Origin: an uncultured Gammaproteobacteria bacterium | GTDB lineage: Bacteria; Patescibacteriota; Patescibacteriia; Veblenbacterales; UBA10138 | DNA: 64,000 bases | Direction: 5' to 3' | Assembly (NCBI GenBank): GCA_964453605.1 | Contig: CAYVOI010000001.1 | Span: 740,095 to 804,094, forward strand | Shown: piece by piece, positions 2,442 through 28,204 of the stretch | How positions within the stretch are numbered: position 1 is the first letter of the stretch | Layout: each line of letters begins with the position of its first letter | Notes under the pieces: generated by a model | Databases searched by the model: none | What the model was told of the DNA's origin: nothing | The model's input: only the letters and a program-made list of their open reading frames with translations | Position numbers and translations under genes: made by a program

Positions 2442-4994
2442 CTATAATTTTCCAGCTTTTTCTACCCTCACCACGCCGCCTGGCTCTAAGACTACGACGT
2501 CGCGCCGGGTGAGCTTACCAGTGAGAAGGTAGGTAGCAAGGGCGTTGTCCACGTTCTCTTGGATAACGCGCCGGAGGGGCCGGGCGCCAAAGAGTGGATC
2601 AAACCCTTTATGTGCGAGCTCGGCCACAGCCTCGGGCGATGCTTTAAGGTGCACACCCTTAGCCTCCAAACCCTGGCTCAGTTTAGCTAAGAGTAGCTCG
2701 GTAACTTTTACCACCTCGGGCATGCCTAGGGGTTTAAACACCACGATACCATCAAACCGGTTTAAAAACTCTGGCCTAAAGTACTGCTGCAGCTCGCGCT
2801 CTAAGAGCTGCTTGCGGATAGCCTCAAGAGCTGTACCAGCCTGGAGTTCATGCTGAATAAAGCTGGTGCCGGCGTTTGAAGTTGCTATCACAATACAGTT
2901 GGTAAAGTCTACGGTTTTGCCGGCAGCGTCGGTGAGGCGGCCGTCGTCTAAGAGCTGCAAGAACACGTTCAAAATATCAAGGTGGGCTTTCTCCAACTCA
3001 TCAAGGAGTAGGAGCGTGTAGGGGTTACGGCGCACTGCCTCGGTGAGCAGCCCGCTCGATGAGCCTGTACCCGCCGGCGCGCCAATCAAACGGTACAAGC
3101 TCTCGGCGGTTTGGTACTCTGACATGTCGAGCCGCACCATTTTGTTCTCACCACCAAAGTACTCAGCCGCTACAGTTTTAGCGAGCTCAGTTTTCCCTAC
3201 CCCCGTAGGACCCAAAAAAAGGAACGAGGCAATGGGGCGTTTTTGGTCCCGTAGGTTCACCCGAGCGCGCCGCAAAGCCTGGGCCACCAGGTTCACGGCT
3301 TCATCTTGCCCCACAATACGCCGGTGTAAAATGTCCTCCAAGTTCAAAAGTTTCTCACGCTCACCTTGCGTCACCTGCGTCACCGGCACGTGCACCTTAC
3401 CAGCCACCACTTGGGCTACATCCTCTGCCCCAACCGCGGTGCCACGAGGGTGGCGATCGCGGGCATAAATAGCCACCTCCTCAAGCAGTTTGATAGCTTT
3501 TTCGGGAAGGAAGCGGTCTGGTAGGTACCGACGCGAAAGTTCGACCGCGGCTTGGAGCGCCCCGTAGGCAAAGTACACGTGGTGCTCGCTCTCCAGTGCA
3601 GGCACACGAGACTCCAACACCTGAATGGAGTGGTTATCGTCAAGCTCGGGCACCTGCACTGGTTGGAGTGCCTGGCCAAGAGCACTGTGTACTAAGGTTT
3701 CATTCCAGGCTGCAGCAGTAGCAGTTGCCAGTACCACCAAACCGTGTTGAGCCACAGCCTGGGCTAAGACCTCGGCTGGACCAATTTCGCCCTGGCTACT
3801 CATGCCTGGCGTTACCAGCTGGTCAATGTTCTCAATCCCCAACACAACGTTACCGGCCCGTACCACTTCGGTTACGGCGTGGAGCAACCGCTCACTGGCT
3901 TGGGCTGGTGTGGCCCCAGACAAAAGTTGGGGTAGCGAGAGCAACAACAGGTGCTTATCTTGCAACAGCTCTGGCACCTCCTCTGCCACCATAGCCTGAG
4001 CGATACCCTCAACCAGTGAGCTCTTACCTACCCCCGCCTCCCCCAGGAGCACCACGCTAGCGTGGCCACCTTCGATAATACGGTACACTTCGGCAAGTTC
4101 TGCCTCGCGCCCCACGCACGGGTTAAGGTACCCTCCGGCGGCAAGGCTGGTAAGGTCGCGCGACATGCGGTTGAGGAACGGGGTGGCCACCGCCAGGTAC
4201 GCCCGGTCCAGCGCGTGCTTGGGGCGGGCGCTGGCGCGTGAGGAGCGACGATGGTACTCGGTCAGCAACTTCCGCCGCAGGGCAAACCACGAGGTAATGT
4301 TGCTGACCGCGTCAGGCGGAATGGCCAGCTCTTCTAGAACTTCTTGCACACCACCTGGAGCTTTAGCTAGTGCCAGGAGTACCTCGCTCATTTCCACCTG
4401 CCGTGCTTGGCGAGCCAAGGCCAAACGTGCGGCCTCCAGAAACACACCTTGTGCCTCTTTTGATAGCCGTGCCTCTGGCCCTTGCCCCAAGAGCATGAGC
4501 TCGTTCCGCAAGGTGGTAGCAAGTTTTTCGCGCGGTACCCCAAGGCGCGAAAACAGCCGACGTGCCGTAGGGTAGTGCAGGGCTGCAGCCAACAGGTGAA
4601 TAGGTGCTACCTCTCCCTGCTTGAGCTGCCCCGCGTAGCGGAACGCCTGCGTCAGCATGGCCCAGGTTTCTTCCGACAAGTACTGGTCTACGGTAATGGT
4701 CAGGGCTTCAGGTGGGAGTGCGGGGTACCAGGCACGTTCGCGGTCGAGGCGGTACCAAGCGTAACCCATAATAAGCACACTAAGCCAGAAATACCCGGCG
4801 CCTGGCGCGCGCGGAAAGAACACTTGCCAGGTGAGCGATTCTATAACCGGAAGCGATAGAACCACGAATCGTACTAAGGCCAACACACTCAGGAGCAGTG
4901 CCACAAAAGCCACCAGGCGGTACACGGTTAAACGTAGACGCCGAAACAGCAGGTCTCCTAAACTGTAGTTGTAGTGCCAAGTGAATTCGGCCAC
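2442..4994 (-). CDS. ClpA/ClpB/ClpC-family AAA+ ATPase with N-terminal transmembrane helices and a degenerate first nucleotide-binding domain
   Basis: Clp_N-like repeats. D1 has Walker A GEAGVGKSS but no hhhhDE Walker B. D2 has GPTGVGKTELAK plus LLLLDELEKAH. Two hydrophobic helices sit within the first 100 aa. Confidence 0.8.
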   Translation of the reverse strand: MAEFTWHYNYSLGDLLFRRLRLTVYRLVAFVALLLSVLALVRFVVLSLPVIESLTWQVFFPRAPGAGYFWLSVLIMGYAWYRLDRERAWYPALPPEALTITVDQYLSEETWAMLTQAFRYAGQLKQGEVAPIHLLAAALHYPTARRLFSRLGVPREKLATTLRNELMLLGQGPEARLSKEAQGVFLEAARLALARQARQVEMSEVLLALAKAPGGVQEVLEELAIPPDAVSNITSWFALRRKLLTEYHRRSSRASARPKHALDRAYLAVATPFLNRMSRDLTSLAAGGYLNPCVGREAELAEVYRIIEGGHASVVLLGEAGVGKSSLVEGIAQAMVAEEVPELLQDKHLLLLSLPQLLSGATPAQASERLLHAVTEVVRAGNVVLGIENIDQLVTPGMSSQGEIGPAEVLAQAVAQHGLVVLATATAAAWNETLVHSALGQALQPVQVPELDDNHSIQVLESRVPALESEHHVYFAYGALQAAVELSRRYLPDRFLPEKAIKLLEEVAIYARDRHPRGTAVGAEDVAQVVAGKVHVPVTQVTQGEREKLLNLEDILHRRIVGQDEAVNLVAQALRRARVNLRDQKRPIASFLFLGPTGVGKTELAKTVAAEYFGGENKMVRLDMSEYQTAESLYRLIGAPAGTGSSSGLLTEAVRRNPYTLLLLDELEKAHLDILNVFLQLLDDGRLTDAAGKTVDFTNCIVIATSNAGTSFIQHELQAGTALEAIRKQLLERELQQYFRPEFLNRFDGIVVFKPLGMPEVVKVTELLLAKLSQGLEAKGVHLKASPEAVAELAHKGFDPLFGARPLRRVIQENVDNALATYLLTGKLTRRDVVVLEPGGVVRVEKAGKL

Positions 4995-5006
4995 AGGAAT
5001 AAAAGG

Positions 5007-5363
5007 TTATAGGCTCGCTACCAACATCAGGAACGTAATTGGCGGCAACGCACACCACATAATGAGCAAGCAGAGGTACCACACGAACGCCAAACTCAGG
5101 CGCACCGACTTCCACACCAACATCACTAAACGGACCACAAAGCTAAGTGCCCGGCCGGAGTACGTGTAGTCGCCGTACATGGGTGTAAATAGGTAGCGCG
5201 CGAACAAGCCTAGGGAAACACGCCAGGCAGCTGCTCGCAACCCGTCTCGGCAGAACCGGAATACCCTTACCAGGCCACCACTGTACCACCAGTACGGAAA
5301 CCGTACTACGTCGAGCAGGAACTCGACCACCAGTTGGCCAATTTGTGTAAGCACAAGAGGCAT
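5007..5363 (-). CDS. Hypothetical small polytopic membrane protein
   Basis: ORF with three or four hydrophobic segments and no recognised motif. Confidence 0.4.
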   Translation of the reverse strand: MPLVLTQIGQLVVEFLLDVVRFPYWWYSGGLVRVFRFCRDGLRAAAWRVSLGLFARYLFTPMYGDYTYSGRALSFVVRLVMLVWKSVRLSLAFVWYLCLLIMWCALPPITFLMLVASL

Positions 5364-13474: not shown

Positions 13475-15205
13475 TTACATCTGCTCCACCACGCCGATAC
13501 CTAAAACACTAAGCCCGTGTTTCAGAACCCCCGCCACGGTACTAACCAGGTACAGGCGAAAGCTGCGCACTGGCTCTTTGGCCGAGAGTACCGGCGAGTC
13601 GTGGTAGTAGGAGTTGGTGGCGGTCGCCAGCTCGTACAGGTACTGAGCCAAGAGGTGTGGCCCGTTCTCGCGTGCGGCCCGCAGAACGGCCTCGGGGTAG
13701 CGGACGGTGAGCCGCAGCATCTGTACATCACTCTGCGCCAAGCTCGTAAGAACGCTGGGCTTGAATGTTTTTGCTACCCGCACCTTGGCACTCTTAGCTT
13801 TACGCAAAATGCTCTTAAGCCGTACGTAGGTGTACTGTAGGTACGGTCCGCTGTTACCCTCAAACGAGAGCATCTTGTCCCAGTTAAAGGTAATGTCGGT
13901 GTGGCGGTTTTGTGATAGATCGTTGTACTTCAAAGCGCCCACCCCCACCACTTCCGCTACCTGAGCCCTAACTTTTGGCGCCAGCTTGTTGTTCTTCTTA
14001 TCCACAATCGCCCGGGCACGAGTGACCGCTTCTTGGAGTACATCGTCAAGCTTTATTATTTTGCCCTCGCGGGTAGCAAGTTTAAGGCCGTCTTCGCCAA
14101 GCACCAGCCCGTTTTTGAGATGCAAGAGCTCAAGGTGGTGCGGTGCGTAGCCCGCGTGGCGAGCAGCCGCGAACACCTGCTCAAAGTGGAGGGCTTGTTC
14201 GTTCCCCACCACGTAGAGTATGGCCTGGGGCTTGTAGTGCTGTACGCGGTAGCGAATGGCGGCCAGGTCGCGTGTAGCGTAGAGCGACACACCGTCCGAC
14301 TTCTGAATAAGTGCCGGTGGCAACCCCTCACCCTCCAGGTGCACCACGACCGAACCATCTGTGTTCTTAACGGCCAGTTTACGCTTCAAAAAGTCAGCCA
14401 CTACCCCGGGCAGCATTTTTTCATAAAAGCTCTCGCCGGTAACGTGGGTGAACTTTACCCCCAAGCGCTTATAGAGAACGTCAAACTCTCGGAGAGACTC
14501 CGTACGGAACCACTGCCACAGCGCCCGGTTCTTGCGGTCACCCTCTTCCAGCTTTTTAAACTCCTCCTGCCCGCGGCGTTCCAGATCAGGCTGCTCTTTC
14601 AGCACCTCGTGGAACTTCACGTAGAGCTTCAGCAACTCTTCAATCGGGTGTCGGTGTACAGCGGAGCGAGAACCCCACATCTTAAAAGCTGAAATCAGTT
14701 TACCAAACTGTGTGCCCCAGTCGCCGAGGTGGTTAAGGCGAATAACCTTGGCCCCAAGCGTTTGGTAAATGTTCGCTACCGCCTGGCCGATTATGGTCGA
14801 GCGCAGGTGCCCAATGTGCATGGGCTTGGCAATGTTCGGGGAGGAGTACTCAACAATAACACGCTTACCCTTAAACACGGGGGTCACTTCCCCGTTCGAC
14901 ACTGCCGCAAGCTCGTGGAGCAGCACTTCTGGTTTCAGGGTAAAGTTGATAAACCCTGGGCCAGCAAGTTCCACCTTAGCAGCATACCTAGCAATAACAC
15001 GGGATGTTTTGAGCTCATCAAGCAATGTTTGGGCCGCTTCCTTGGGTGGCACGCCCCACTTGCTGGCGACTTTCAAAGCTACATTGGTAGTGTAGTCGCC
15101 GTGGCCAAGGTCGCGCGTTAAAGCTACCTCGACCTCGTGAGGTTCAAGCTGGTAGTGCTTTTGGGCAGCGAGCGCTACCTCGTGCTGAAGTTTTAGGGAA
15201 AGCAT
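13475..15205 (-). CDS. argS: Arginine--tRNA ligase
   Basis: HIGH motif SPNIAKPMHIGHLRS. 576 aa with ArgRS domain order. Confidence 0.9.
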   Translation of the reverse strand: MLSLKLQHEVALAAQKHYQLEPHEVEVALTRDLGHGDYTTNVALKVASKWGVPPKEAAQTLLDELKTSRVIARYAAKVELAGPGFINFTLKPEVLLHELAAVSNGEVTPVFKGKRVIVEYSSPNIAKPMHIGHLRSTIIGQAVANIYQTLGAKVIRLNHLGDWGTQFGKLISAFKMWGSRSAVHRHPIEELLKLYVKFHEVLKEQPDLERRGQEEFKKLEEGDRKNRALWQWFRTESLREFDVLYKRLGVKFTHVTGESFYEKMLPGVVADFLKRKLAVKNTDGSVVVHLEGEGLPPALIQKSDGVSLYATRDLAAIRYRVQHYKPQAILYVVGNEQALHFEQVFAAARHAGYAPHHLELLHLKNGLVLGEDGLKLATREGKIIKLDDVLQEAVTRARAIVDKKNNKLAPKVRAQVAEVVGVGALKYNDLSQNRHTDITFNWDKMLSFEGNSGPYLQYTYVRLKSILRKAKSAKVRVAKTFKPSVLTSLAQSDVQMLRLTVRYPEAVLRAARENGPHLLAQYLYELATATNSYYHDSPVLSAKEPVRSFRLYLVSTVAGVLKHGLSVLGIGVVEQM

Positions 15206-15294
15206 AACGTAGTTCAGTATACTGGTTTTGCTTTAAAAACAAAACCGGCCCGATCCGCCAGGTGGCGAGATCAGGCCGGAGGAACACGCTACAC

Positions 15295-15642
15295 TTACTT
15301 CTTAACGGCTTCTACCAGTTTGGAGAACACGGCTGGGTACTCGCGAGCAAGCTGAGCCATGACCTTACGGTCGAGCTCTACCTTGGCCTTCTTGAGTAAC
15401 CCCATGAACTTGCTGTAGCTAAGCCCATGCTCCCGAACCGCGGCGTTTATCTGCACCTGCCAGAGGGCGCGGAAGTCGCCCTTCTTGTCCCTCCGGTGGG
15501 CAAAGGCATGCTGACCTGCCTTGTGGGTTGCAACCTTGGCTAGAGTTATCTTGCTCTTGCGGCCCCAGCGGTAACCGCGGGTTCGCTTTAGTAAATTGCG
15601 ACGCCGCTTGGCGTGCATCATGCCTCGTTTTACGCGTGCCAT
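15295..15642 (-). CDS. rplT: 50S ribosomal protein L20
   Basis: MARVKRG...RRRNLLK...GYRW is a strongly conserved L20 sequence. Confidence 0.95.
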   Translation of the reverse strand: MARVKRGMMHAKRRRNLLKRTRGYRWGRKSKITLAKVATHKAGQHAFAHRRDKKGDFRALWQVQINAAVREHGLSYSKFMGLLKKAKVELDRKVMAQLAREYPAVFSKLVEAVKK

Positions 15643-15680
15643 ACAGTAGTACTAATAAAGAAAAGAAAAACTAGTTCCGC

Positions 15681-15875
15681 CTAGCTGCGGTTGATGAGCT
15701 TTCTGAGCGCGGGCAGGTTCACCTTGGCAATTTCCTTGTCGCGGCGCTTGGCGCGCGTGACCACACCGCTCTCTCTGGCGTTAAAGTGGTCTTGTCCGGC
15801 AGTGCGCTTCATGAACTTACCCCGGCGCGTGACGCGGAAACGCTTCGCGCTCGCCTTGTGCGTTTTTACCTTCAT
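15681..15875 (-). CDS. rpmI: 50S ribosomal protein L35
   Basis: MKVKTHKASAKRFRVT... matches L35. Canonical infC-rpmI-rplT order. Confidence 0.9.
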   Translation of the reverse strand: MKVKTHKASAKRFRVTRRGKFMKRTAGQDHFNARESGVVTRAKRRDKEIAKVNLPALRKLINRS

Positions 15876-15940
15876 AGTAACTCTCGGAATTTAGGAATTA
15901 TGAACAGGAAACCGACCTCACTATTTACTATTCACAACCC

Positions 15941-16462
15941 CTAAGCTTTCTTGCGTGCAACCTGCATGCTGACGTTGCCACCGGCACGTGAGAACGGCAC
16001 TTCTACCACCACGTTCTCCCCCATGTCCGTAATAAACGCCTGCATGATTTCGCGGGCTAAGTCCCCGCGCGACTTTTCCCGACCCCGGAGTATCATCTCC
16101 AGCCGCACCCGGTGCCCCTCGTCCAAAAACTTTTGGGCCTGGCCCATGCGCACCTGCTTGTCGTGGTCACCAATTTTTAAACTAAGCCTAACACCTTTTA
16201 CCCCTACCTTTTTCACCTTGGCCTTTTGTGCCTGGGCTTGCTTCTGTTGCTTGTACTGGAACTGGCCAAAGTCTATAAGCTTGGCGATGGGGGGCTGGGC
16301 CGTGGGGTTCACCTCAACCAGATCAAGCCCTCGCTCGTGCGCGAGCTTTAAAGCTTCCACCGTTGGCACAACGCCCATAGGCTTGCCGAGCTCGTCTATA
16401 AGCTGCAGCTCGGGCACTCTGATGTACTGGTTAACGCGGTAGCGTGGACGGCTGTTGTTCAA
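15941..16462 (-). CDS. infC: Translation initiation factor IF-3
   Basis: IF3 N- and C-domain motifs (YIRVPELQLIDE...GLDLVEV...). The apparent start is TTG, a non-ATG start as is common for infC. Confidence 0.9.
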   Translation of the reverse strand: MNNSRPRYRVNQYIRVPELQLIDELGKPMGVVPTVEALKLAHERGLDLVEVNPTAQPPIAKLIDFGQFQYKQQKQAQAQKAKVKKVGVKGVRLSLKIGDHDKQVRMGQAQKFLDEGHRVRLEMILRGREKSRGDLAREIMQAFITDMGENVVVEVPFSRAGGNVSMQVARKKA

Positions 16463-16472
16463 CGGTTTGGGG

Positions 16473-16769
16473 CTAAATGGTACGTACAGAATCTCTCAAC
16501 ATTAATCCTAGTGATTTCTTACCAGGGTTCGTCTTGAAATACTGTTCTCTGCGAATCGCATCTACTTTACTAAGGTACGCTTCGTAGAAAACAAGTTTCA
16601 AGGGGCGTCGTCCCTTTGTTGCTAGTACGCCACCGGCATGGTGTGTGCGTATACGACTTTTTAAATCTGCACTATAACCAATGTAGAACTTTTTGTCGCT
16701 TGAGCTCACCAGTACGTAGACGTAATGCATAGGTATAGCCCTAAAGTAGATTTTGCTTCGCTCAATCAC
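16473..16769 (-). CDS. GIY-YIG nuclease superfamily small protein (UPF0213-like); the probable true start is the internal ATG at 16730
   Basis: YVYVL...FYIGYS...SRIRTH...EAYL...REQYFK motifs. GC ~44%. The extension to 16769 uses a GTG start. Confidence 0.65.
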   Translation of the reverse strand: MIERSKIYFRAIPMHYVYVLVSSSDKKFYIGYSADLKSRIRTHHAGGVLATKGRRPLKLVFYEAYLSKVDAIRREQYFKTNPGKKSLGLMLRDSVRTI

Positions 16770-16775
16770 TTCAGG

Positions 16776-16910
16776 GCACCATGAAGTATGCGCTCGTGAA
16801 CAATCACCTTTATGGGCATGTCAACTGGCTGTGCCATGAAGTAGATTGAATCATCACTTCATGGCGTGCCATGAAGTTGCGCGAATGCAATGAGCGCATA
16901 CTTCATGGTG
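16776..16910. repeat. Nested inverted/direct repeat module built on the core CCATGAAGT, overlapping the 3' end of ssrA
   Basis: 17-bp perfect inverted repeat ccatgaagtatgcgctc (16779-16795) and gagcgcatacttcatgg (16892-16908). Inner hairpin gccatgaagt/acttcatggc (16833-16865). Three direct and two inverted copies of the core. Confidence 0.7.
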
Positions 16911-17285
16911 GAGGTGACGGGGTTTACACCCGTGTCTAGCGACGCAACCTACCCCAAGGTCCAAGTTCAGAGCCGCTGGTACTCTAGGTAGATAGAGCGG
17001 CTCAAAAATCTACCTGAGGTTGTTCCGAAGTGTCGGTAGTAGACCGGAACAGCTCCTGCTACCCTGCTCGATGAATGACGTTCCTAAGGGCTATCGAGCG
17101 TCACCCCTAGGAGCGGCGTTCGGTTTTTAAGCGAACACTGGTGCCAAGGTAGCAACGCGGAACGCGTCCCTTACCTTAGCGACAAATGACTTGGCATTTG
17201 TAGAGTGCTAATTTTTTAAGGCAGACCAGCAACTGCCACCTGCTTGAAGCAAGCTAACGTGCGCTATCGAATGGTAAACACCCCC
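16906..17285 (-). ncRNA. ssrA: tmRNA (SsrA), about 380 nt
   Basis: The 5' end GGGGGUG pairs with the 3' end CACCUCC, including a G3:U70 wobble, then ACCA. T-arm ACGGG-UGUAAAC-CCCGU. The 5' AUUCGAUAGCG resembles E. coli AUUCGACGGG. H-type pseudoknot motifs. A helix-5-like hairpin GUUCG-CUUAAAAAC-CGAAC carries UAA in its loop. Adjacent to smpB. Confidence 0.75.
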
Positions 17286-17294
17286 CACCACGGG

Positions 17295-17322
17295 CCACTA
17301 GCCAATGGCCACTAGCCAATGG
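17295..17322. repeat. Perfect tandem duplication of the 14-mer ccactagccaatgg, between smpB and the ssrA 5' end
   Basis: Read directly from the sequence. Confidence 0.8.
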
Positions 17323-17335
17323 TGGGGACTGTTTA

Positions 17336-17782
17336 CTAACGTTTTAAGGTACGCCTGATTTCTCGCTCGGTTTCGCGCTTCCGTATAGTAACCCGCTTGT
17401 CGTAGCGGGTTTTACCGCGCGCTAACCCTAATTCAACTTTCACAAACCTGTGCGCAGTATACAGAGAAAGTGGCACCACTGTCAAGCCTCCCTGGCGAAG
17501 CTTGCCGCTGAGGTGTTGAAGCTCGCTGCGCTTGAGAAGGAGCTTCCTGTCCCGCTCGGCCTCGTACCCCAGCTGCCGTGAGCCTGCTGGGGCGTACGGC
17601 GCAATGTGGCAACCGGTAAGCCAGAGCTCGGTACCTTTTGGGATAACGTAGGCGCCAGTGAGGGCAGCCCGCCCGCCTTTGACCGACTTTACCTCAGCGC
17701 CCGAGAGCACTAAACCAGCCTCGAACTTTTCCAGGATTTGGTACTCGTGCAACGCTTTGCGGTTCTGGGCTAGGGTAGGCAT
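17336..17782 (-). CDS. smpB: SsrA-binding protein SmpB
   Basis: KALHEYQILEKFEAGLVLSGAEVKS...RKLLLKRSEL are conserved SmpB motifs. Confidence 0.9.
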   Translation of the reverse strand: MPTLAQNRKALHEYQILEKFEAGLVLSGAEVKSVKGGRAALTGAYVIPKGTELWLTGCHIAPYAPAGSRQLGYEAERDRKLLLKRSELQHLSGKLRQGGLTVVPLSLYTAHRFVKVELGLARGKTRYDKRVTIRKRETEREIRRTLKR

Positions 17783-17805
17783 ACGTTAGTATTGTAGCCT
17801 AAGGC

Positions 17806-17856
17806 GAGCGATAAAAGAAAAACTGCCCCGGACCGTTGTGGTGGTCAGGGGCAGGT
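17806..17856 (-). terminator. Putative terminator hairpin CUGCCCC...GGGGCAG followed by a U-rich tract
   Basis: 7-bp GC-rich stem followed by TTTTTCTTTT on the minus strand, downstream of the ORF at 17886-18215. Confidence 0.45.
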
Positions 17857-17885
17857 TCAAACATGCGTCGACCAGGTTGATCGAC

Positions 17886-18215
17886 TTACCGGTGGATGGG
17901 TCGCCTGGTGATGGGCTCCAAGGGACTTGTGACATAGGTGTGGTGGTTGTCACCGGAGACCCAACAGCCCATGATGTAGCCCGCGGTGCAGAGGTGTTGG
18001 AGCCAGCGACCATACCGCTGTCGACAGAGGGGCAAGAGCCAACTCACCGCGACGGCGCTGCAGGTGCAAACCTCGACCCAGAACCCGAGTCCGATGAACC
18101 GATACATGCTCATGTACGTTGTGGCTGAATCTCCTGTCATCACCAGCAGCGAAGCAACGTTGAGGAGCGGGCTCACGACGAGCGCGAGCAGAAGAAAACG
18201 AACGATATTTTTCAT
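17886..18215 (-). CDS. Small hypothetical membrane protein
   Basis: Strong SD AAGGAGAG 5 nt before the ATG at 18215. Three hydrophobic segments. Confidence 0.5.
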   Translation of the reverse strand: MKNIVRFLLLALVVSPLLNVASLLVMTGDSATTYMSMYRFIGLGFWVEVCTCSAVAVSWLLPLCRQRYGRWLQHLCTAGYIMGCWVSGDNHHTYVTSPLEPITRRPIHR

Positions 18216-18443
18216 GACACTCTCCTTGGTAGTTATTGGTTTCAGTTTGGATTTCAAAAATTTTGACTAACTACTAATAGTATACCTAAACCCCATTTTT
18301 GTCAATAGCCTGTGGAACAGTAGGTAGATTTACCCGGTTGTTCCACAAGGGTTGACAAATTCAGCCGGTTGTGCTACGTTTAGTTGAATTGAAAAAATAG
18401 AAAATTACCTTAACAATCACAATACACCGAAAGGAGAGTTAAC

Positions 18444-20162
18444 GTGAATACCCAACTTGTAATCGCGATAGTCGCGGCAGTGACAACGATCTGGCTGATG
18501 CTTAAATACTGGCCGCGCAAAAAACAAAATGATGATGGCACCGAGAACGCCACGTTTGTTGACCTCAACCAACCCAGCAAGTCAAATTCGCTTAAGACAA
18601 TGTTACTCGCTTTCCTTGAGCCGTTCAATACGCCATTCAAATGGGTGAAACGACGGTTGACAAAGAGGAGACAGAGAAACATGCAGCAGCCATCCACGGC
18701 TGGTGCAGCTCAAACTGCAACTCCTCCACCAAACACCGCTCCACCAACTCCACCTTACCAGCACCGCGATCGCCAGCGGCCATCCAGCAACGAGCAGAGT
18801 ATTAAACGTTACATAGTGATGGCTTTACTCTGCCTGATCGTTCTATCAGCTCTGTATAGTTTTTTCCGAGGCAATAACGGACAATCAATTCAGCCGACGG
18901 TAACGTCGCAAGGTACTGGTGGAGGCAGCACGGACACGGCTTCCCCAAACGCCACTAGCAGCGCCTCACCCAAGAATAACGAGGTGAAACAACCCTCAAC
19001 CACTGATTCAATGAGTATCCTGAGGCAGGAGGTGGCAGCACTTAAGGCGCGTGAGGCGGCCCGACAAGCAGACAGCGTCCGTTTGGCGGAAGCTGTCGAG
19101 AATACTTACCAAGAGTTCAAGGAATCGGTAAGCAAGGAGCTTGCCAACTCTGCGACCTCCGGCGCCACCTCACCCGTGCAAATTCGGAGTCGCGCCTATC
19201 AGTTCCGCGATTTGAGCACACCGGTGACGTTCGACACCGCGTACCAAATTGCGCGATGGGCTGAGGAGAAAACCGGTGTGCGTGCAGCCTTCCTGCTCGC
19301 TATTCTAACCCAGGAGTCAGACCTGGGACGGAACATCGGCAGCTGCCACTGGAAAGACGTCATGAATCCCAATCGTGATAAAGAACCGTTCCAACGGATC
19401 TGCCGCGAGCTGGGCAGGGACCCAGAGGCAACTCTGGTTTCGTGCAAGATGCACGACAAGAACGGTAACCGAAGCGGCTGGGGCGGGGCGATGGGACCGG
19501 CACAGTTCCTGCCGTCTACCTGGGTCGACTACGGCAGCTTGGTGACGACCTACACTGGGAAGGCTCCGGCCGATCCATGGGACCTTCGGGATGCCTTTGT
19601 CGCCGCCGCCTTAAAGCTTAGGGAAGACGGAGCAAATGGCACACGGCAAGGTGAGTGGGATGCCGCAATGACGTACTTTAGCGGCAGTACCAATCTGAAG
19701 TACCGGCTCTACGGTGACAACGTGGCTAACCTGGCCAATGCCTATCAAAGTGCTATTGGTCAGCCTGAGCAGACGATGTTAACCAGCAACCAACAGCAGC
19801 AGGTGGCACCTCAGGTCACCAAGCTACCGTATCCTGACCTGTCTGGACTTTGGGTTGAAGCTAACCCAGGTAACTACTACCAGAGCCAAGCCACGTTCGA
19901 GGTTAGCCCCCGCGGGGACCTAACGGTTCACATCCACTGGAACAACGGCCACCGAAGCGTTGATGAAACCTGCTTCGGTACTGTTACCCAAAGTGGTGTA
20001 CTACGGTTTACTGGCACGGAGCTTGCAAACCTGGATCCGCCAGGGTATAACCGCGATTACATCCTTGGTAACTACTACGCTAGTCTTTCATCAGATCACA
20101 AGGTGTTAGCAGGCGGGTGGGCCAATGGAGACAAAGGGAAATTCACACTTCAGAAACAATAA
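18444..20162 (+). CDS. Membrane-anchored protein with a lytic-transglycosylase-like domain (MltB/SLT-like) and extra N- and C-terminal regions
   Basis: GTG start behind SD AAAGGAGAG. N-terminal TM helix, low-complexity P/T/S region, coiled coil. Motifs ILTQESDLGRN and GAMGPAQFLPSTW resemble murein transglycosylase B-family active-site regions. GC ~52%. Confidence 0.55.
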   Translation: MNTQLVIAIVAAVTTIWLMLKYWPRKKQNDDGTENATFVDLNQPSKSNSLKTMLLAFLEPFNTPFKWVKRRLTKRRQRNMQQPSTAGAAQTATPPPNTAPPTPPYQHRDRQRPSSNEQSIKRYIVMALLCLIVLSALYSFFRGNNGQSIQPTVTSQGTGGGSTDTASPNATSSASPKNNEVKQPSTTDSMSILRQEVAALKAREAARQADSVRLAEAVENTYQEFKESVSKELANSATSGATSPVQIRSRAYQFRDLSTPVTFDTAYQIARWAEEKTGVRAAFLLAILTQESDLGRNIGSCHWKDVMNPNRDKEPFQRICRELGRDPEATLVSCKMHDKNGNRSGWGGAMGPAQFLPSTWVDYGSLVTTYTGKAPADPWDLRDAFVAAALKLREDGANGTRQGEWDAAMTYFSGSTNLKYRLYGDNVANLANAYQSAIGQPEQTMLTSNQQQQVAPQVTKLPYPDLSGLWVEANPGNYYQSQATFEVSPRGDLTVHIHWNNGHRSVDETCFGTVTQSGVLRFTGTELANLDPPGYNRDYILGNYYASLSSDHKVLAGGWANGDKGKFTLQKQ

Positions 20163-23015: not shown

Positions 23016-23093
23016 CCCGAAGAATGTTCGCTGACGCTCACATCTACGGGGCGCGGCACGTCTCAACGCTCTTTAAAATGAAATGCACAAAGC

Positions 23094-23168
23094 GGGCCCG
23101 TGGTGTAGCCCGGTTAACACGTCTCCCTGTCACGGAGAAGACCGCCGGTTCGAATCCGGTCGGGCCCG
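23094..23168 (+). tRNA. tRNA-Asp (GTC), 75 nt, CCA not encoded
   Basis: Manual cloverleaf. Acceptor GGGCCCG/CGGGCCC. D-stem GTGT/ACAC. Anticodon stem TCTCC/GGAGA. Loop CTGTCAC. T-arm GCCGG-TTCGAAT-CCGGT. Discriminator G. Confidence 0.85.
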
Positions 23169-23221
23169 CTTTGTGCGTCTCACTGCCTGCCCCGTATAGA
23201 TACCGCAGTATCTTGTACGGG

Positions 23222-23264
23222 GTCACGGAGAAGACCGCCGGTTCGAATCCGGTCGGGCCCGCCA
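23222..23264 (+). pseudogene. 43-nt fragment equal to the 3' part of tRNA-Asp from the anticodon loop to the 3' end, plus an encoded CCA
   Basis: gtcacggagaagaccgccggttcgaatccggtcgggcccg is identical to 23129-23168, followed by cca. Confidence 0.6.
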
Positions 23265-27253: not shown

Positions 27254-28204
27254 CTATGCAGCTCGTTGCCGGGTGAGGTAGGCGTAGGCCTGGAGCGCTG
27301 CCTTAGCACCCTCCCCGGCCGCCACCACAATCTGCTTTTCTGGCACCGTGGTGATGTCACCAGCGGCAAACACACCTGGGGCTGAGGTTTGGTTCAGGGT
27401 ATCAATAACCACTTCATGGGCCTGGTTCAACTCCACTACGCCTTGGAGGAAATCGGTGGCGGGTTCATAGCCGATTTCTTCAAAAATGCCCCCCACCGCC
27501 AGTTCTTCTACTTCACCGGTTTGGCGGTGCTTTACCCTGAGGCCTGTAACCTGGGTTCCACCCAAAATTTCAACCGCATCACGCTCGGTGAGCACGGTCA
27601 CGTTATCACTCCCCATAACAGCGTCTACCATCACCTGCTCACCAGTGAGTGCTGGGTTTATGGTTACAGCGTAAACCTTGGGACAAATTTTCTTAAGCTG
27701 GAGGGTGGCGTCGAGCGCCGAGTTACCACCGCCAACTACCGCCACCACCTTACCCTTGTAGAGTGGCGCGTCGCAGGTGGCACAGAAGGTGACCCCGCGG
27801 CCCATGAGTTTTTTTTCGCCCGGGATGTTGAGCATGCGCGGGTTCTTGCCGGCGGCGATGATAACTGCCCCGACGGTAAGCACCTGGCCGTCAGAAAGCT
27901 TAGCCAGCCAACCGTCCTGAAGCTGCTCCAGGTGCACCACCTCTTGACCTTCTACGACTTCGAGGTCAAAGGTAGCGTTGTCGTCGTCAAACCGCTTCAC
28001 GTGCTTGTAGAACTGCGCCGTGAGGTCAGGCCCAGTCACCATGGTAAAACCGAGGTAGTTCTCGATGTCAGCTGACCAGGCCGTTTGTCCGCCGATGACC
28101 TTAGCGACCAGCAGGGTGTCGAGCTTGCGGCGGGTGGCGTAGATGGCGGCTGTCATGCCGGCTGGTCCGCCACCGATGATGAGGAGGTCGTAGTGCGCTT
28201 TCAT
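27254..28204 (-). CDS. trxB: Thioredoxin-disulfide reductase
   Basis: FAD motif LLIIGGGPAG, redox-active CATCD, NADPH motif VVGGGNSA. The probable start is the ATG at 28204 (MKAHYDLL) rather than the ORF-track start at 28258. Confidence 0.85.
   Translation of the reverse strand: MKAHYDLLIIGGGPAGMTAAIYATRRKLDTLLVAKVIGGQTAWSADIENYLGFTMVTGPDLTAQFYKHVKRFDDDNATFDLEVVEGQEVVHLEQLQDGWLAKLSDGQVLTVGAVIIAAGKNPRMLNIPGEKKLMGRGVTFCATCDAPLYKGKVVAVVGGGNSALDATLQLKKICPKVYAVTINPALTGEQVMVDAVMGSDNVTVLTERDAVEILGGTQVTGLRVKHRQTGEVEELAVGGIFEEIGYEPATDFLQGVVELNQAHEVVIDTLNQTSAPGVFAAGDITTVPEKQIVVAAGEGAKAALQAYAYLTRQRAA

Follow-up and report, generated by a model that had tools for sequence, protein, structure and literature searches.

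A GIY-YIG nuclease gene and an array of hairpins anchored on the tmRNA 3' end in a patescibacterial genome

A set of palindromes and a small GIY-YIG nuclease gene, together called the module here, lie directly behind ssrA, the gene for transfer-messenger RNA (tmRNA), in a 64-kb stretch of DNA from contig CAYVOI010000001.1 (the whole stretch is hereafter the window). Judged against the empty site of a relative, positions 16473-16905 are an insertion of ~440 bp between ssrA and infC. The module is a real and conserved feature that is not due to chance, and it is one member of a widespread association between tRNA or tmRNA 3' ends and small GIY-YIG genes. It is best read as an originally mobile, long-resident nuclease with hairpins anchored on the CCA end. 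In the searchable literature on GIY-YIG with tmRNA, with adjacent tRNA genes or with Patescibacteria, no description of this association was found.

The locus, its stems and its protein

The host is patescibacterial (Candidate Phyla Radiation, CPR). Its SmpB shares 76% identity with the SmpB of a Candidatus Veblenbacteria metagenome-assembled genome (MAG), and ~50% with those of other CPR lineages. The genes run in the order smpB, tmRNA, module, GIY-YIG, infC, rpmI, rplT and argS, all on the minus strand, with a palindrome-rich stretch of ~175 bp between the tmRNA and the GIY-YIG gene. The features are as follows, in tmRNA-sense order.

17336..17782, minus strand: smpB (Pfam PF01668, E 1.1e-50), the first of the co-oriented gene run
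16906..17285, minus strand: ssrA, the tmRNA gene (full-length match to Rfam RF00023, 60.8 bits with a gathering score of 47, E 2.4e-22)
16892..16910, minus strand: junction arm J (CACCA + TGAAGTATGCGCTC), made up of the tmRNA's final 5 nt and 14 nt of trailer (inverted repeat, covariation)
16869..16882, minus strand: arm a1 (GCGCA-ACTTCATGG), the proximal partner of J (inverted-repeat search, covariation)
16833..16865, minus strand: hairpin H2 (GCCATGAAGTGAT..ATCTACTTCATGGC), one more hairpin of the pre-gene type (inverted repeat and fold)
16826..16836, minus strand: mini-palindrome TGGC-ACA-GCCA, kept in the clade and in distant GIY-linked spacers
16777..16795, minus strand: arm a2 (GAGCGCATACTTCATGGTG), the distal partner of J (inverted repeat, folds, covariation)
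16739..16776, minus strand: hairpin H3 (CCCTGAAGTGAT-TGAGCGAAGCAAA-ATCTACTTTAGGG), directly after stem P1 and 8 nt before the start codon
16473..16730, minus strand: gene for the 85-aa GIY-YIG nuclease (Pfam PF01541), ATG at 16730 and stop at 16475-16473
15941..16462, minus strand: infC (Pfam IF3_N and IF3_C), which starts 10 nt past the GIY-YIG stop

In the tmRNA sense, ...CCTCCACCA is followed by J, a1, H2, the mini-palindrome, a spacer, a2, H3, CTATACCT and the ATG. Arm J, which includes the encoded CCA of the tmRNA (16908-16906), is the common 5' arm of two mutually exclusive stems. Paired with a1 it forms hairpin H1, of 9 + 5 bp with a bulged A. Paired with a2, the same CACCA-plus-trailer arm forms P1, a 19-bp long-range stem that encloses H1, H2 and the spacer.

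The original prediction, made from the sequence alone, described a perfect inverted repeat of 17 bp overlapping the tmRNA end. The repeat and the overlap are real, but the repeat is perfect over 19 bp (16777-16795 and 16892-16910), and its right arm takes in the terminal CACCA of the tmRNA. A second hairpin predicted inside this outer repeat was recovered at 16833-16865 by both the inverted-repeat search and the fold. The repeat core CCATGAAGT has, as had been counted, three exact copies on the plus strand (16779, 16834 and 16869) and two on the minus strand (16856 and 16900), so that a stretch of 130 bp holds five of the seven exact copies in the window. Allowing one mismatch gives 19 matches where 10.6 are expected, and none of 100 shuffles reaches 19. 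Matches at 27411 and 43597 are isolated, with no hairpin partner nearby, and look like chance. A further echo of the repeat, CCCTGAAGTGAT...ATCTACTT, is indeed present (16776-16739); it had been assigned to the 5' region of the nuclease gene, but it is not coding and constitutes a third hairpin upstream of the ATG.

The minus strand of 16760-16925 folds strongly as RNA (-73.3 kcal/mol, z = -8.5). In minimum-free-energy folds of the window and eight related loci, P1 is followed directly by H3. Hairpins of the H3 type recur in several lineages, upstream of the GIY-YIG genes at L081, L084, L139, L147, L161, L166-L168, L177 and L180 (L numbers denote the loci compared). For covariation, the stem arms from seven genomes were aligned, with the variable middle swapped for a fixed linker. 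H1 is paired in 99% of the alignment cells and has four pairs (11 cells) that change on both sides; P1 is paired in 89% and has eight such pairs (19 cells). The score was reached in 0 of 500 shuffles in either case, and slid controls for the two stems gave pairing in only 25-46% of cells. Both stems are thus kept by covariation.

There are no further copies of the module or of the GIY-YIG gene in the 64-kb window. A scan of 14000-20000 with Rfam 15 at E <= 1 found no family in the module, the only matches being the tmRNA and a chance match to mir-30 that overlaps the tmRNA 5' leader. A promoter and terminator scan of the module gave nothing convincing. The sequence TTGACA occurs in the spacers of the window and of L081, and there is no conserved copy in the other relatives.

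ARAGORN makes no tmRNA call in the window, and Rfam was needed to place the gene at 16906-17285. ARAGORN is also blind to the tmRNAs of L081, L085, L097 and L177; at the gathering score, Rfam detects those of the window, L085, L097 and L177, and not that of L081. Surveys of CPR tmRNA that rest on ARAGORN will therefore undercount. The 5' leader of the tmRNA (17274-17336, minus strand) is complementary to the first ~14 nt of the mature molecule (GTAAACA..CCCC / GGGGGGTGTTTAC), and the resulting hairpin, of -47.9 kcal/mol in the window, crosses the 5' processing site. It is found in five genomes: the window, L001 (4440-4515), L081 (1275-1345), L085 (2440-2525) and L097 (930-1012). The inner part of its stem varies among genomes, and L001 has the hairpin though it has no GIY-YIG gene. 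The leader in the window also contains a 14-nt tandem repeat (17288-17315).

The gene next to the palindromes is, as predicted, a GIY-YIG gene of low GC content (42%, against 55% for the window). The Pfam PF01541 match has E 1.7e-13 and 51 bits (cut-off 22.6), and covers residues 14-81 of a 98-aa open reading frame; no other Pfam domain is present. The start codon is the ATG at 16730, which gives an 85-aa protein (MHYVYVL...) identical to database protein P0001, and homologues begin with MHYVYVL or MYYVYVL. A GTG at 16769, chosen by a mechanical ORF finder, was rejected in view of the N-termini of homologues and the identity to P0001. In an alignment of 25 sequences, G18, R26, H30 and E62 never vary, and at least 90% of the sequences retain Y5 and Y16. 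The fold and the membership of the GIY-YIG superfamily can be regarded as settled because the Pfam match, the profile match to PDB entries 1zg2 and 1ywl and the conserved catalytic residues all agree. The best relatives of solved structure are the UPF0213 proteins BH0048 (1zg2, E 1.5e-12) and EF2693 (1ywl, 1.2e-11), with SLX1 next.

A profile search of 5.8 billion proteins gave 6418 matches at E <= 1e-5, and there were no informative names among the 120 matches listed. A tblastn search of a plasmid collection gave only three weak matches in Firmicutes, of which the best is Bacillus subtilis YazA (44% identity over 65 aa). In viral contigs (IMG/VR) the family has just three loci, and a phage origin was rejected on that account.

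Related loci and the spread of the association

The closest sampled relative of the window, L001, is a Ca. Veblenbacteria MAG. There, the tmRNA ends in ...CCACCA and is followed by 37 nt and then by infC. This gap contains no hairpins and no GIY-YIG gene, and its sequence is T-rich and unlike that of the window. In six other patescibacterial genomes (L081-83, L084, L085, L177, L178/179 and L180), the module is present at the same position, with GIY-YIG proteins that are 61-78% identical to that of the window. All six carry J, a1, TGGC-NNN-GCCA, a2 and H3. The palindromes and the GIY-YIG gene therefore belong together, as the original prediction supposed: every relative that bears the module has the gene, and gene-less L001 has no module. 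The number of repeats varies. H2, an additional unit of 35 nt, occurs in the window and L180 alone, and L084 has one more pre-gene hairpin. Neither outcome that the original prediction had named as its refutation, a module without the gene or a plain terminator of constant repeat number, was thus observed.

Several findings suggest that the insertion is old, and that its descent in this patescibacterial clade has been vertical, selection acting on protein and stems alike. Housekeeping proteins and the GIY-YIG protein give the same rank order of genomes, L001 being the most distant. Across the clade, synonymous sites in the GIY-YIG genes are saturated (pS 0.54-0.99), pN is 0.15-0.27 and dN/dS is at most 0.2; CCATGAAGTA, ACTTCATGGC and the stems persist despite this saturation. 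Given this dN/dS and the retention of the catalytic residues, the protein is predicted to be functional. The GC content of the gene is 7-13 points below that of its locus (38-55%) in all four genomes compared (window, L081, L084 and L085). Since the deficit is shared by all four, it is a stable property rather than a sign of recent transfer.

A different arrangement is encountered in L084 (1-3000). Its module and GIY-YIG gene are preceded only by ...CATCTCCACCA, and Rfam gives no tmRNA body. Upstream lie a gene for an OLD-family nuclease (AAA_15/AAA_21 with an OLD-like TOPRIM domain) and small ORFs. The whole has the look of an island that sits at ssrA or has taken its place.

The association extends well beyond this clade. 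When the protein was compared with 80 SmpB loci by tblastn, homologues were found at the smpB-tmRNA locus in eight, from distant lineages. Seven of these lie just 3' of the tmRNA (L004, L007, L009, L012, L020, L077 and, truncated, L044); in L064, a truncated fragment lies between smpB and the tmRNA. Five of the six full-length cases have a stem whose first arm overlaps the tmRNA 3' end. The exception is L012, where the spacer is partly masked and only a short terminal hairpin is visible; between its tmRNA and GIY-YIG gene (~4990-5180), a masked run of N is followed by tandem 15-nt units of AGCGAAGCCGAAGGG. Further homologues lie behind tRNA-Gln in a Falkowbacteria genome and behind tRNA-Asn in the flavobacterium Pukyongia salina.

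A metagenome scan added 80 loci, 66 of them with enough upstream sequence. In 37 of the 66, a tRNA or tmRNA gene on the same strand ends at most 400 nt upstream of the GIY-YIG gene, mostly at 44-250 nt; Rfam adds at least one tmRNA missed by ARAGORN, that of L097. The orientation is almost invariable: over all loci, 69 tRNA genes are on the plus strand and one is on the minus strand. The linked RNA genes comprise tRNAs for Ser, Asn, Gln, Gly, Met, Asp, Trp, Ala, Glu, Tyr and Leu, as well as tmRNA.

The stems follow the same pattern. A perfect stem of at least 8 bp crosses the 3' junction in 42 of 59 GIY-linked RNA genes and in seven of 93 unlinked ones (p = 2.5e-12), and several of the seven are solo hairpins at neighbouring tRNAs inside GIY-YIG loci. 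The complement in the stem tracks the terminal bases of each tRNA, as in L099 (gc|TGTGAACC..GGTTCACAgc), L102 (gg|..cc) and L092 (cgagcca|TGAACT..AGTTCAtggctcg). Trailers begin with TG in 31 of 52 spacers, and the motif TGGY-N1-4-RCCM occurs in 33 of the 52, where shuffles would give 2.7. Arrays of stacked units are frequent (L127, with four copies, L110, L113, L173 and L098). Mini-hairpin motifs of the GCGAAGC type recur in many GIY-linked spacers. In L100, L110 and L117, solo junction hairpins (GCCATGCACC / GCCATGTACC) are seen at neighbouring tRNA-Ser genes that do not directly precede a GIY-YIG gene, although the loci hold one; hairpins can therefore exist without an adjacent gene, like REP-like solo copies.

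The distribution also has a selfish flavour, as the original prediction suspected: it is patchy, with truncated copies and relocation among tRNA genes. GIY-YIG proteins that are at least 72% identical are found behind the same type of tRNA, while at 55-70% identity the tRNAs differ. The tmRNA-linked copies are polyphyletic. The proteins of L098, linked to tmRNA, and L123, linked to tRNA-Ala, are 70% identical; both RNA genes end in CTCCACCA, and the trailers that follow begin with TGAA (TGAACC in L098, TGAAGT in L123 as in the window). In L168 (1016-1500) there are two GIY-YIG gene starts, each behind the same type of hairpin, and in L044 (4922-5002) and L064 (4450-4530) truncated fragments adjoin the tmRNA. 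These double and broken copies are signs of duplication and decay. Because of the differing tRNAs at 55-70% identity, the polyphyly and the truncated and double copies, the gene has in the course of evolution shifted from one tRNA-like 3' end to another, with position and orientation retained throughout.

A separate repeat at a tRNA 3' end was noticed elsewhere in the window. A tRNA-Asp gene (23094-23169, plus strand) ends without CCA and is followed by a 52-nt spacer that contains a hairpin. Its 3' half forms an exact 41-nt direct repeat (23129-23169 and 23222-23262), the second copy of which ends in ...GCCCGCCA. Within the region 23079-23264 (plus strand), a 22-nt inverted repeat (23079-23100 and 23161-23182) pairs the 5' leader and acceptor strand with the 3' acceptor strand and trailer. 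Possible explanations are a remnant of integration and a small duplication at the tRNA 3' end.

Interpretations of the module

To our knowledge, single-domain GIY-YIG nucleases exist in thousands and only the Ssn group of Neisseria has demonstrated activity. Ssn is a single-domain GIY-YIG protein of ~94 aa that binds hairpin repeats flanking its own gene and cuts only single-stranded DNA (PMC11893778). Cleavage is strand-specific and upstream of the hairpin, and it also takes place when the halves of the hairpin are on separate strands (PMC11893778).

By analogy, we lean, with slightly more confidence than doubt, towards an Ssn-like nuclease with cognate hairpins that was inserted after the CCA of ssrA, has become a long-term resident and recognises its hairpins on the single-stranded sense strand. 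The nuclease belongs to a large cellular family, of thousands of proteins, whose genes tend to lie co-oriented and immediately 3' of those for tRNA or tmRNA. In the associated array, the first hairpin is built across the 3' end of the RNA gene itself, from NCCA and trailer. The hairpins would be the recognition structures of the nuclease, presented by the sense strand when it is single-stranded, and we infer from the Ssn precedent that the nuclease binds or cuts them and that single-stranded DNA, and not RNA, is the form that matters. The module would have entered ssrA by insertion right after the CCA. Vertical inheritance in the patescibacterial clade would have followed, with selection on the protein and the stems.

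Several observations weigh against this account. The published Ssn-related (SRM) pattern, HGTCWYN(0-2)YYVSBRHN(0-5)WNVSBRGN(0-2)RNCYNB, has 0 matches in the window and 0 in 89 GIY-YIG loci (237 kb), searched with a regular expression that recovers the NTS control. The best relatives of solved structure are UPF0213 proteins, and the likeness to Ssn is by analogy. Within the window, the hairpins lie upstream of the gene only and not on both sides. In the clade of the window the module is a stable resident, mobility being visible only at deeper evolutionary distances. The tmRNA leader hairpin covers the mature 5' end even in L001, which favours an RNA-processing reading of the junction hairpins in this lineage. 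Finally, mismatches in the stems (17 G.T against 10 A.C, p = 0.12) do not decide between strands or between DNA and RNA.

It is also possible, though we would call it rather doubtful, that the module represents an undescribed class, in which a bare GIY-YIG protein and palindromic units, mobile or domesticated, are inserted or built exactly after the NCCA of tRNAs and tmRNA. Each unit would bring a complementary TGGN and regenerate a new GCCA, and units could thus stack. The target would be chosen by base pairing of single-stranded DNA, amounting to a DNA-guided system specific for tRNA ends.

The original prediction had also offered that the palindromes might be a processing structure, and this idea is a live rival. 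Here, smpB, ssrA, GIY-YIG, infC, rpmI and rplT would be one transcript in which the hairpins act as RNA. P1 (19-23 bp, starting from the CCA tail) would process or insulate the tmRNA 3' end, as a site for a double-strand-specific RNase or as a block to exonucleases. The alternative stems H1 and P1, with H3, would tune tmRNA maturation and the expression of GIY-YIG and infC, and the nuclease gene would be cargo, dependent on read-through that comes from an RNA gene with strong transcription. The extreme co-orientation with tRNA genes fits such a role, as does the stability of the fold. Transcription most likely continues across the module, given the lack of a T-run and the gap of 10 nt between the GIY-YIG stop and infC. 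Covariation maintains both alternative partners of a single 5' arm, a pattern that belongs to RNA switches. In P1 and H3 of the clade, those few pairs that are not Watson-Crick are G.U when read on the sense strand, and the tmRNA 5' leader pairs across the mature end in five genomes. However, the junction stems are tied to the presence of GIY-YIG and not to tRNAs generally (42 of 59 against 7 of 93), and L001 matures its tmRNA without them. The stems are almost wholly perfect Watson-Crick helices, and family-wide G.T is not significantly commoner than A.C. Many tRNA-linked stems are just 9-13 bp, too short for a double-strand RNase, and the tandem arrays (four copies in L127; L110, L113 and L173) resemble the REP/BIME clusters of enteric bacteria. 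On balance, an action in RNA is unlikely to be the main explanation, and is given little less weight than the undescribed class; it is not exclusive of the Ssn-like reading.

The remaining possibilities fare worse. A homing nuclease, also suggested originally, would be a free-standing enzyme of the phage T4 Seg type that cuts double-stranded DNA of GIY-less ssrA alleles and is copied by repair, with the palindromes incidental. The filled and empty sites among relatives and the low GC content are in keeping with homing, and the free-standing GIY-YIG homing endonuclease SegB of T4 lies within a phage tRNA gene cluster and cuts double-stranded DNA (PMC2330249). However, homing endonucleases of this kind have a nuclease and a DNA-binding domain in ~200-250 aa, while the present protein is a bare catalytic domain of 85 aa without a DNA-binding module; the match to TIGR01453 reaches only 21.5 bits (cut-off 56.05) over residues 3-32. 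The family is almost absent from viral contigs, and homing leaves both the covarying stems and the stems across tRNA 3' junctions unexplained. We regard it as improbable.

Two further proposals of the original prediction have very little to recommend them. The 3' end of ssrA is a classic attachment site for islands, and the repeats could on that ground be scars of successive integrations and excisions of integrase-borne islands, for which the OLD-nuclease island directly upstream of the L084 module, with its missing tmRNA body, might also speak. Yet the GIY-YIG gene is the sole ORF between the tmRNA and infC, and no integrase is present. What the copies have in common with the tmRNA is just 3-5 nt (CACCA or CCA), and their orientation alternates. 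Their conservation and covariation extend over genomes with saturated synonymous sites, and ordinary tRNAs are followed by the same design. The scar reading is close to refuted. A plain or compound intrinsic terminator for ssrA, which strong hairpins immediately 3' of a stable RNA gene would bring to mind, is just as improbable. There is no terminator-like site in 16731-16905 and no T-run after P1 (CCCTGAAG) or H3 (CTATACCTATG); infC lies 10 nt behind the GIY-YIG gene, and L001 has a different, T-rich spacer of 37 nt. Most likely, the infC-rpmI-rplT transcripts pass through the module.

The strict, strand-specific anchoring and the stems that track each RNA 3' end give a direct hypothesis on what these nucleases recognise, and also on how, in very small genomes, a conserved safe site could be located by a nuclease that has no DNA-binding domain. 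Because the module directly precedes the essential infC-rpmI-rplT genes in this clade, any ssrA-derived transcript that reaches them crosses it, and tmRNA 3' maturation must cope with a stem of 19-23 bp that begins in the CCA tail. The system could be a source of programmable single-stranded-DNA nucleases if it is through base pairing that the hairpins guide cleavage. Should the undescribed class prove to be the correct description, Ssn-like nucleases would gain a concrete target in the sense strand that is exposed at highly transcribed RNA genes.

Comparison with known systems

Like integrase-borne ssrA islands, the module is foreign DNA directly 3' of the tmRNA gene. Unlike them, it has no integrase and no long direct repeat of the tmRNA, and it measures 0.44 kb rather than kilobases. 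With T4 SegB it shares a GIY-YIG gene among or next to tRNA genes and selfish behaviour; SegB, however, is a phage protein of the modular class, with a separate DNA-binding domain and no cognate hairpins.

The UPF0213 proteins (BH0048, EF2693 and YazA) and the bacterial Slx1-like proteins are similar in that they consist of a bare GIY-YIG domain. No reported linkage of these proteins to tRNA genes or hairpin repeats was found. A survey from 2006 described a fusion of GIY-YIG to a TrmH-like tRNA methyltransferase, a hint of a role in RNA metabolism (PMC1564403).

Arrays of imperfect palindromes accompany a small nuclease gene in REP/BIME-RAYT systems and IS200/IS605 elements too. For IS200/IS605 elements, the insertion point is exactly 3' of a short target, which is read by base pairing with element DNA near the foot of a hairpin. 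This resembles the units of the module, which start right after NCCA and bear the complementary TGGN. The enzymes are different, since those systems use HUH/Y1 transposases and not GIY-YIG proteins, and transposition of the module is only putative. A REP/RAYT or IS200/IS605 element was rejected as an identity for the module, which has no HUH/Y1 transposase gene and whose adjacent protein is GIY-YIG only. We know of no link of either system to tRNA 3' ends.

The closest known system appears, by analogy, to be the Ssn family (cd10448; SsnA of Neisseria meningitidis, CAX49033.1, with its NTS/SRM repeats). In the paper that described it, repeats and gene are compared with an insertion sequence as well as with REP/RAYT, and neither tRNA nor tmRNA is mentioned (Chenal et al. 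2025, PMC11893778). The module differs in that its hairpins are anchored on a tRNA or tmRNA 3' end including NCCA, lie upstream only and do not have the published SRM pattern, and no genome-wide expansion of repeats is visible within the 64-kb window. Both proteins are bare single-domain GIY-YIG nucleases of ~85-95 aa without a DNA-binding domain, and at 85 aa the protein of the window is well below the ~150 aa that bounds the single-domain group. In both systems the gene is accompanied by hairpin-forming repeats of 20-50 nt, represented here by H2, H3 and P1 on the 5' side, and related hairpins lie upstream of homologues too. Finally, the hairpins often have GCGAAGC-like tips, as can be seen when TGAGCGAAGCAAA in H3 of the window and ATCGCGAAGCGAT in L144 and L167 are set beside CCGCGMAVGCGG, the centre of the NTS.

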